Assembly: GCA_024704765.1 (NCBI GenBank)
Contig: JAKMXF010000144.1
Span: forward strand, 186,001 to 250,000
Direction of reading: 5' to 3'
DNA: 64,000 nt
Source: Oopsacas minuta
Lineage: Eukaryota > Animalia > Porifera
The translations under genes and the position numbers were made by a program. Shown piece after piece: positions 50,201-53,200 of this stretch. Numbering within the stretch: the first letter of the stretch is position 1; each line of letters opens with the position of its first letter. Below the pieces are notes generated by a model that was not told the origin of the DNA, ran no database searches, and saw only the letters and a list, made by a program, of their open reading frames with translations.

Positions 50201-53200
50201 TGGTCTGTTATAGTCCGCAATTAATGTTTTACTCAACCCAGGTGATAACCGATTGGTATCTGTTTGATGGAAGGGCAATCGAGATCCGACCACAAATTCT
50301 GGCCTCACCAAGGGTTGCGTGTTCGGGTAAGGTACCGACCCAATTCTACCCCAATCAAGAGTGGCATACTGATGTGGCTGAATTGGGTTGAACCTGTGAC
50401 TAGGTGGCGGATAACCAATCACATTTCTTGTATCGGTGCTATTCGTATACGGATGGAATGGTTTTATTTGATTGGGTACTGAGGGATGCGAAATTGGACG
50501 AAGTGGCATGTAATGTGGCTCTGTTGACATTTTCTGAGGGATATATACAGGCGACACATTGTTAGCTGGTTGACATGTGGGTAATGTTAATTGTGGCTTC
50601 ATTTCAGGATAAAAGTTGTAAGCAAAGGGATTAGTTTGTTGGTTCATTCCTAGTGGATCATATTTATGATAAGTGTCGTCACACGGTCTGGTGGTTTGTG
50701 AAGTGGCATTTTGTGCCATATCACACGGAGGTGTTACAATTGTGGCACCCTTGTTCATATCATATCTTATGGCGTTTTGAAAGGTGGGATTTTGTGAAAA
50801 TTCACAAGATGTACCTTTTCCAAAAGTGTCAATGTGGTTTCTAAAATTTATGCTGTTTTGATAAATATTATTAGGTGTGATAGTGGCATACGGGTCCGTA
50901 ACATCTGGAACTAGTGACTGAGTAGGTGTTTGAGGGTTTAGTGACATAATAGAGCCAATTTTGGTATCCTGACACTGCATACGAGGCTGATACATGGTCT
51001 GGTTATAGAATTTAGAATGTTGACTAGGAAAGGGGGTATATTGTATATTATTCTGAAGTGGTTTTTGTGGCTCAATTGTGGCAGGGTGGCTCGGGACATA
51101 CGACATAGGAGCTGTAGTGGTTTGCTCCCGTTGTGTCATAAGTGGAATTGTGCCGGCCATTAGTGTCGCTTCCATATCATCGATTCCTTCGACATGCTTT
51201 TGACCATATCCTGTAACTAGGACATCTCTGACACTTTCTGGCTTCGAAACTTTATAGTTACGCTCTGGAATGCCTTGGTTTGAATTTTCATAATGTCGAG
51301 TTGTTAAAGGTGGCAGAGAATGTGGTACATTACAGAAAGTGGCATGACTGTAAGGATCACCACTTGAACTCATTAGTCACTAATTGAAATCTAAATTGTC
51401 ATAATTAAAGGGTACAAGTAGCGACACAAAAGTGGCTATTGGGCAGCGCGCGACAGTTTTATGACACCTTTAAATAAACTCCAAAAGTGGCAGACTGTAA
51501 ATCAGACAATTTCCTAAGAATTGAGTATAGCTGATGAATTTATATTAACCATATGGGTGTATATAAATACAGCAATGATTGCAACCATGAATACTCACGT
51601 AATACAGAATTGTTGCAATTCTATTTCTGTCATTTCCACGGAATGATTTTATCTCATCTCCCTAGATACATAATGGGTTATTGGAATGCTTATAAACTTA
51701 CATAGAATAGAATTGTCGCTATTCGGTTGCCAAAGCCACCACCATATGCATCTTTCTTGTTCTAAAAATAGATAGTTCCATATAAATTTAGTATTTGCAT
51801 TTGGGACTATACGCTCGAATAAAAACCCTCTAATTCCTTGGAAGGGTTACGCCACGTTTGAACGACACATATATGTATAACTCTGCCACAAAATATACGA
51901 ATAACAATTAGCCGTTGTAGAAGAGCTATTATATACATATTGTGTGTATGGAGTAACTTGACTCTCCAAATAGAATATAAAACTCCTGTGAAGATATGTA
52001 TAGGAATTCCTGTACTAATATTGCTTTGTAGTTTGTATGCTTTTTACTATTACATATAGTGGCTCAGTTCTACATGGGTGATTATATATATATTTGTTTT
52101 CGCTCTGCTGTTCACACCTTTAGAGATTAAGACACCAAATTTGGCATGTGTACTTGTAGTGACATCTAGTTGTGCACCTGATACTTGAAAAATTTCTAAT
52201 GTGTATATTTTCACACCTTTTGACACCTCTGTATTTTAACGCAATCAGATGGTAGGGTGTTACAATTAGGCATTAATGCATAAAATTAGTTTTGATGGAA
52301 TGTATTTGTATTGATGTAGACTGTAATTCTATTGGGCAATACATTCTATTAATATATATATACACTGATTTATCATATGATTAATCATATTTTCACACTT
52401 TTGATTAACATTCAAAATGATCATAGGGATTAGCTTCCACTTGTCAAATAGGGTAAACAAGGACGTAGAATTCGGTTGTGACACTTGTGAATGTCTAACA
52501 AGATTAGTAAAATTCAATATTCTCCATATTTTGCGGTGGATTAATTATATTATGAGGGACAGTTTACTGACAGAGTTCAGATATTTATATTAACTTACCC
52601 TCGCGTGGTCATAATGTGGCTCATAGTGTCCTCCAATGCCATAGACACCTAACTAAAATCAAAGAATATATAAATCATATTCTAACACATTCCTAGCGTC
52701 ACCATGGTTACCTGTAGGTCTTCAGCAGTGTCCATTTCGAGTCCAGTAATATCTTCTAATCTCTGATTAACAATAGGAAATATTTCCATGTCGTCATTGT
52801 TACTTAACCAAGAGCTTTTTGCGATTCTGTAGTCAGCTGGCTCGAATTTCCCGCTCAGATGGTTTCGAGCTGTCGCTCGGTATAACTAAATGGGTTGAAT
52901 CATATAAATACCTTCCAGGCACTCTCATTACTATGAAAACTAGTCGATAAATAGAATTGAAACTTGGAAATTAATATCAGAGTTGGTAAGTATGACAGTG
53001 GGATATTTAAGAGACTCTTGGTCTATTTCTCACCTTTTGCTTCCCTAGTTCTTCTATTCTAGTCATCTGTACCTCAGAGAGCACCTGTCTAAGCGAGTAT
53101 ATCCTTGGTGTGTCGTGTAGCATCTCTATCTTAGCAGGGTTGTATAGAAGATTTAAGGTTTTACTGTTTGAGTAATAAAAACACTTCAGTTTACGCTCTC

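Follow-up and report, generated by a model that had tools for sequence, protein, structure and literature searches.

Adjacent homologous exons with alternative acceptors in the predicted collagen prolyl 4-hydroxylase alpha gene of the glass sponge Oopsacas minuta

Known loop switches and the sponge gene

Homologous alternative exons have long been known in P4HA genes; Nokelainen et al. 2001 is reportedly the reference for human P4HA2 exons 12a/12b, and Helaakoski 1994 is cited as a further reference. The two human P4HA2 exons are 60 and 66 nt long with coordinates 49 nt apart, as given in the supplement of PMC8373072, and human P4HA1 carries homologous exons of 71 nt each, which also swap a substrate-binding loop of collagen P4H (PMC8373072, PMC9676403). 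According to the relevant part of PMC9676403, the splice variants of P4HA2 alter the βII–βIII loop (Arg435-Gly448) and those of P4HA1 alter the hairpin loop, with both loops enclosing the peptide in the algal enzyme. The P4HA2 event has been dated to Vertebrata and the P4HA1 event to Bilateria, the survey in PMC8373072 having looked outside chordates only for events present in tunicates or lancelets; further context is found in parts of PMC9189910, PMC12340787 and PMC3557258. A literature search with subscription journals mostly outside its coverage found no publication describing alternative P4HA exons in either sponges or cnidarians; 'prolyl' and 'splic' are absent from the main text of the genome paper (PMC10280926) and 'P4HA' is absent from PMC4465641.

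The window analysed here is a stretch of 64,000 nt from Oopsacas minuta (contig JAKMXF010000144.1, positions 186,001 to 250,000), and all features below lie on its minus strand. It contains the coding span (47250..54855) of a gene that is predicted from its sequence to encode the alpha subunit of collagen prolyl 4-hydroxylase, composed of seven upstream exons, the exons A and B, and three downstream exons. The translation gives a match above cut-off to PF08336 (the N-terminal P4Ha_N domain) and matches to the human P4HA1/P4HA2 structures down to 1.6e-37, in agreement with the N-terminal, peptide-binding and catalytic domains of such a subunit, and it keeps the HxD..H iron ligands in a single reading frame, with the HxD at 431 and the distal His at 500 or 501, the predicted length being 543 aa with exon A and 544 aa with exon B. 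Two NCBI O. minuta proteins named prolyl 4-hydroxylase subunit alpha share the first exon with 100% identity. The introns among the seven upstream exons, from the mapped NCBI models, measure 289, 72, 92, 289, 148 and 59 nt. The constitutive upstream exon with the HxD ligands (52652-52599, 54 nt) ends in HYDHAR and is followed by a GTAAGT donor; after B comes an intron of 3.8 kb and then three exons, separated by introns of 126 and 142 nt and supplying the distal His, namely the constitutive LSDV.. exon (47781-47713, 69 nt), the exon with HAGCPV and the distal His (47586-47490, 97 nt) and the last coding exon with NKWI (47250..47347). The hairpin-loop segment, where the P4HA1 switch lies, is present in a single copy. 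Directly upstream of the gene stands a TRAF-like zinc-finger/MATH gene (55048-56376), and a high-copy short interspersed repeat occurs within the P4HA introns (52073-52500, near 53319 and near 54350), with a depth of up to about 20000 vs about 100-300.

The first-pass annotation had described two adjacent phase-0 exons of 60 and 63 nt between the HYDHAR exon and the LSDV exon, and this arrangement was recovered exactly. Exon A, NKKDAYGGGFGNRIATILFY (51761-51702, 60 nt), is preceded by the acceptor TTTTTAG and followed by the donor GTAAGT; the spacer (51701-51662, 40 nt, GT..AG) carries an in-frame stop at its fourth codon; and exon B, GDEIKSFRGNDRNRIATILYY (51661-51599, 63 nt), ends at the donor GTGAGT. 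A and B are thus homologous neighbours, alike in length and phase and flanked by canonical splice sites, and the spacer, as had been proposed, is the shortest intron of the gene (40 nt vs 59 nt for the shortest other). The pair is not a chance likeness, since both exons match the profile of the family segment (30.5 bits for A and 28.1 bits for B) and run X4 shows splicing to either acceptor. An assembly artefact was likewise ruled out by a contig from run X1, which is identical to the window over 47000-52120 (0 other letters). Exon A retains its frame, consensus donor and family motif, and in the last nine codons the two exons show differences at 6 of the 9 third positions vs 2 of the 18 first and second ones (Fisher p=0.006); given this concentration at third positions, the pair looks like an old duplicate under purifying selection, a codon pattern with which a recent death of A would also be compatible. 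A B-type exon, spliced in frame, is retained in the 74%-identical relative P0006. No A-type exon from another glass sponge was present among the listed matches (15 + 120 + 150), and in the search of 50% clusters none of the matches listed could be identified, from an A- or B-type exon, as another glass-sponge sequence.

The segment encoded by A and B was assigned from PMC9676403, in the part dealing with the loops, together with an alignment in which exon A falls on the βII–βIII loop of 7ZSC. The variable part had been described as a loop beside the active site, and it corresponds to the βII–βIII substrate-binding loop. Like human P4HA2 12a/12b, the sponge pair covers this loop and the following strand, lies in phase 0, places the 60-nt exon first and has a short spacer (40 nt in O. 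minuta, 49 nt in human), so that the likeness in segment and design to 12a/12b noticed earlier is borne out. However, the second exon is 63 nt in O. minuta and 66 nt in human P4HA2, and the more canonical copy is second in vertebrate P4HA2 but apparently first in O. minuta.

Splicing at the pair

Four runs of one sample cover the locus, none of them recorded as RNA, and the splicing evidence comes from the contigs of X4. This run was treated as RNA because of five GT-AG joints at exon borders (of 15 joints listed), absent from the three other runs, and because of its low intron depth. The upstream exon is joined to B at a depth of 1288.5 and to A at a depth of 478.6, making B the major form in this one sample with a joint depth about 2.7x that of A. 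A 108-letter contig runs from the upstream exon through B into the beginning of the 47781 exon, so that one contig shows both junctions of B. Both entry points are already in NCBI, where KAI6656398.1 and KAI6656397.1 are models of the same gene, one entering A and the other B; both read on into intron sequence and end there, at 459 and 474 aa, so that the last three exons are absent from them.

A contig of 116 letters with a depth of 349.5 runs unbroken through A, the retained spacer and 15 letters of B. Its depth is 15x that of the intron preceding A (23.3), which indicates that spacer retention is common; retention leads to the stop at the fourth spacer codon and leaves an ORF of 459 aa without the distal His and HAGCPV. 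No joint or loose end leading from A to 47781 was present in the X4 contigs over 51280-52030, nor among the other X4 joints and loose ends listed, and none of the six loose ends over 51280-52030 lies at A's donor. Assembled contigs demonstrate the presence of junctions, not their absence. Thus, of the junctions listed as a check by the first-pass annotation, those from 52599 to A, from 52599 to B and from B to 47781 were seen and an A-B joint was not, while the expected joint from A to 47781 did not appear. The claim of mutually exclusive use is accordingly borne out in part: both acceptors are used and no spliced A-B is present, but the exit from A to the downstream exon was not seen and A with its spacer is abundant.

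These data could be read as showing that A is an upstream alternative acceptor only, so that A, spacer and B form one exon of 163 nt with a premature stop. The transcript would then be unproductive (poison-like) or encode a truncated subunit lacking the distal His, and only B would give an active enzyme. The unbroken, deep contig of A, spacer and the start of B fits such an exon, as do the missing joint from A to the downstream exon in the X4 contigs, the read-through ORF of 459 aa lacking HAGCPV, and the NCBI model entering A (P0001), which ends in the spacer. However, A has preserved its codon pattern, its frame and its donor, and the depth falls by about half across that donor: the mean depth of the A contig implies about 264 past the donor vs about 502 within A, and by this arithmetic about one in two A molecules may exit there. 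The A contig, moreover, breaks off without a continuation inside B, a region that the B contig crosses without interruption, which suggests that the assembler dropped links of similar depth and that the joint from A to the downstream exon may have been lost in this way. We regard the 163-nt exon as rather unlikely, and a productive A isoform as likely. Inclusion of both exons, which would add up to 123 nt in frame and give a protein of 564 aa with a doubled loop and strand, is permitted by the reading frame, and tick and teleost models do show both copies in tandem; but the upstream exon is joined directly to B at the highest depth and no spliced A-to-B joint was found in the 20 X4 contigs inside 51280-52030, so that joint inclusion is largely refuted for this sample and appears highly improbable.

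The 3.8-kb intron holds a nested single-exon ORF of 1163 aa on the same strand (47885..51373), which has a C-terminal DUF3626 and is covered throughout in X4; its product shows a Pro-rich N-terminal part and Cys/His repeats with weak zinc-finger matches. It is likely the cause of the truncated NCBI models that end at A or B, nested genes being described as common and poorly annotated in glass sponges in the part of PMC10282587 that treats them. At each of two AG acceptors before the ORF (51379..51392), X4 shows an identical foreign piece of 11 letters on the 5' side. This piece with its AG was not found in the window and is likely a trans-spliced leader; the same source, in its section on the subject, reports spliced-leader trans-splicing for A. 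vastus. The distance from B's donor to these acceptors is about 210 nt, and their use might cleave the P4HA pre-mRNA. A transcript joining A or B to the nested ORF was rejected, as from either acceptor a stop follows within six codons and no joint of this kind appeared.

Distribution and origin of the twin exons

In 20 isoform clusters (up to 15 members listed each), a second version of the βII–βIII exon was found in at least seven. The twin versions came from Xenia, Dendronephthya, Paramuricea (an orthologous pair), Procambarus, Eriocheir, Haliotis and ticks, whose RefSeq/GenBank isoforms carry alternative βII–βIII exons like A/B, with lineage-specific sequences and from automatic annotations; a discussion of these isoforms was not found in the literature covered. 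By pattern, the listed members of the other 13 clusters, among them Dysidea avara, bees, Anopheles, mites and Biomphalaria, gave no second version. In protein P0268 the tandem pair occurs twice, and a bonefish model places the 60-nt type first. A pattern scan of metagenomes returned at least 120 loci, many of them redundant. Tandem copies were present in 2 of the 39 listed loci that reach the next exon (two copies in L063 and three in L073), and a further locus, L079, has five βII–βIII copies and does not span to the next exon; the AG/GT sites are intact in all three arrays. Loci L017, L096, L113 and L116 were dropped as two-copy candidates, each holding one exon split by an extra intron; they represent a lineage in which the βII–βIII exon is interrupted in this way. 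In all, the proposed search for twin exons in other animals located them in octocorals, ticks, decapods, abalone, one teleost and three metagenome loci. The hairpin segment exists in four versions both in the demosponge Dysidea avara (P0007, P0020-P0022) and in the octocoral Dendronephthya (P0034, P0035, P0038, P0039).

The βII–βIII exon has quite probably been duplicated recurrently and independently across animals, as judged from the exon sequences: the copies resemble the partner of their own lineage and their order varies. In a re-pairing test of 10 hand-picked pairs, one per lineage or locus and using the last four residues each, pairs within a lineage share 34 of 40 terminal residues vs 22.7 on random re-pairing (p=2e-5), a likeness that gene conversion or shared packing could also produce. 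As to order, vertebrates and L063 have the canonical-like copy in second place, whereas in ticks and, weakly, in O. minuta it comes first; spacers range from 40 to 479 nt and copy number from 2 to 5 across lineages. In an exon tree of 39 exons and 22 columns, 2 of 33 inner branches are supported, one of them joining B to the B-type exon of P0006 (support 95/96), and A is unplaced.

It is unlikely, in comparison, that A and B were inherited as a pair from the last common animal ancestor and are homologous to 12a/12b, with fast divergence of one copy and partial homogenisation. The same exon borders, the 60-nt first exon and the 40/49-nt spacer shared by sponge and human would agree with such an inheritance, and so would the twin versions in at least seven of the 20 clusters, three octocorals included, and the by-eye alignment of B to the beginning of the 66-nt human exon. 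However, the borders are general in animals, a GT following the HxD exon immediately in 100 of the 120 metagenome loci listed, so a shared position alone is no proof of a shared duplication. The rarity of tandem copies among the spanning metagenome loci, the single βII–βIII version shared by the four isoforms of Dysidea avara, the variable copy number, spacer and order, and the matching within lineages also weigh against an ancestral pair. The earlier alternative between an extremely old event and a striking convergence therefore leans to convergence, which is less striking than supposed since the same exon has been duplicated in many animal lineages.

Proposed mechanism and meaning

Our preferred reading, to which we give a probability of about 0.55, is that A and B stem from an old tandem duplication and have alternative acceptors, likely forming a mutually exclusive pair with a short spacer, and that this duplication likely took place within glass sponges, independently of vertebrate 12a/12b. 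The two acceptors would be used alternatively, and the 40-nt spacer would be too short to be spliced, which would enforce exclusivity. The steric limit between donor and branch point is given as about 50 nt in vertebrate work, which may not be that of the sponge (PMC7969005, in the passage on this limit), and any branch point within the spacer falls below it; the sterically enforced exclusivity suggested before thus agrees with the vertebrate figure. The spliceosome would be unable to pair A's donor with a branch point less than 40 nt away, and entry at A would be followed by a jump from A's donor to 47781, giving the 543-aa enzyme. Where splicing of A fails, the spacer would be kept and the chain would stop after 459 aa, the transcript being a predicted target of decay. 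The two full-length enzymes would differ solely in the βII–βIII substrate-binding loop, and a different substrate preference of the isoforms is plausible from the sequence, because the A/B segment corresponds to one of the two loops that enclose the peptide in the algal enzyme.

The full exon set corrects the two truncated NCBI models, and the findings extend both P4HA loop switches to non-bilaterians, the P4HA2-type in a sponge and the P4HA1-type in sponge and octocoral models. It is doubtful, yet it would be of consequence, that the βII–βIII switch goes back to the ancestor of sponges and humans and was kept with a sub-50-nt spacer in glass sponges, octocorals, arthropods, molluscs and vertebrate P4HA2; it would then be among the oldest conserved alternative-splicing events in animals and would have tuned the choice of collagen substrate from the first appearance of the extracellular matrix onwards. 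Either both switches predate their published ages, or exactly the two loop exons that grip the substrate have been duplicated repeatedly. The natural loop variants on one enzyme background offer material for testing loop function. With repeated duplication, the βII–βIII exon would be a pan-animal hot spot reaching sponges, and loop swapping would be a favoured route to a wider specificity of collagen P4H.
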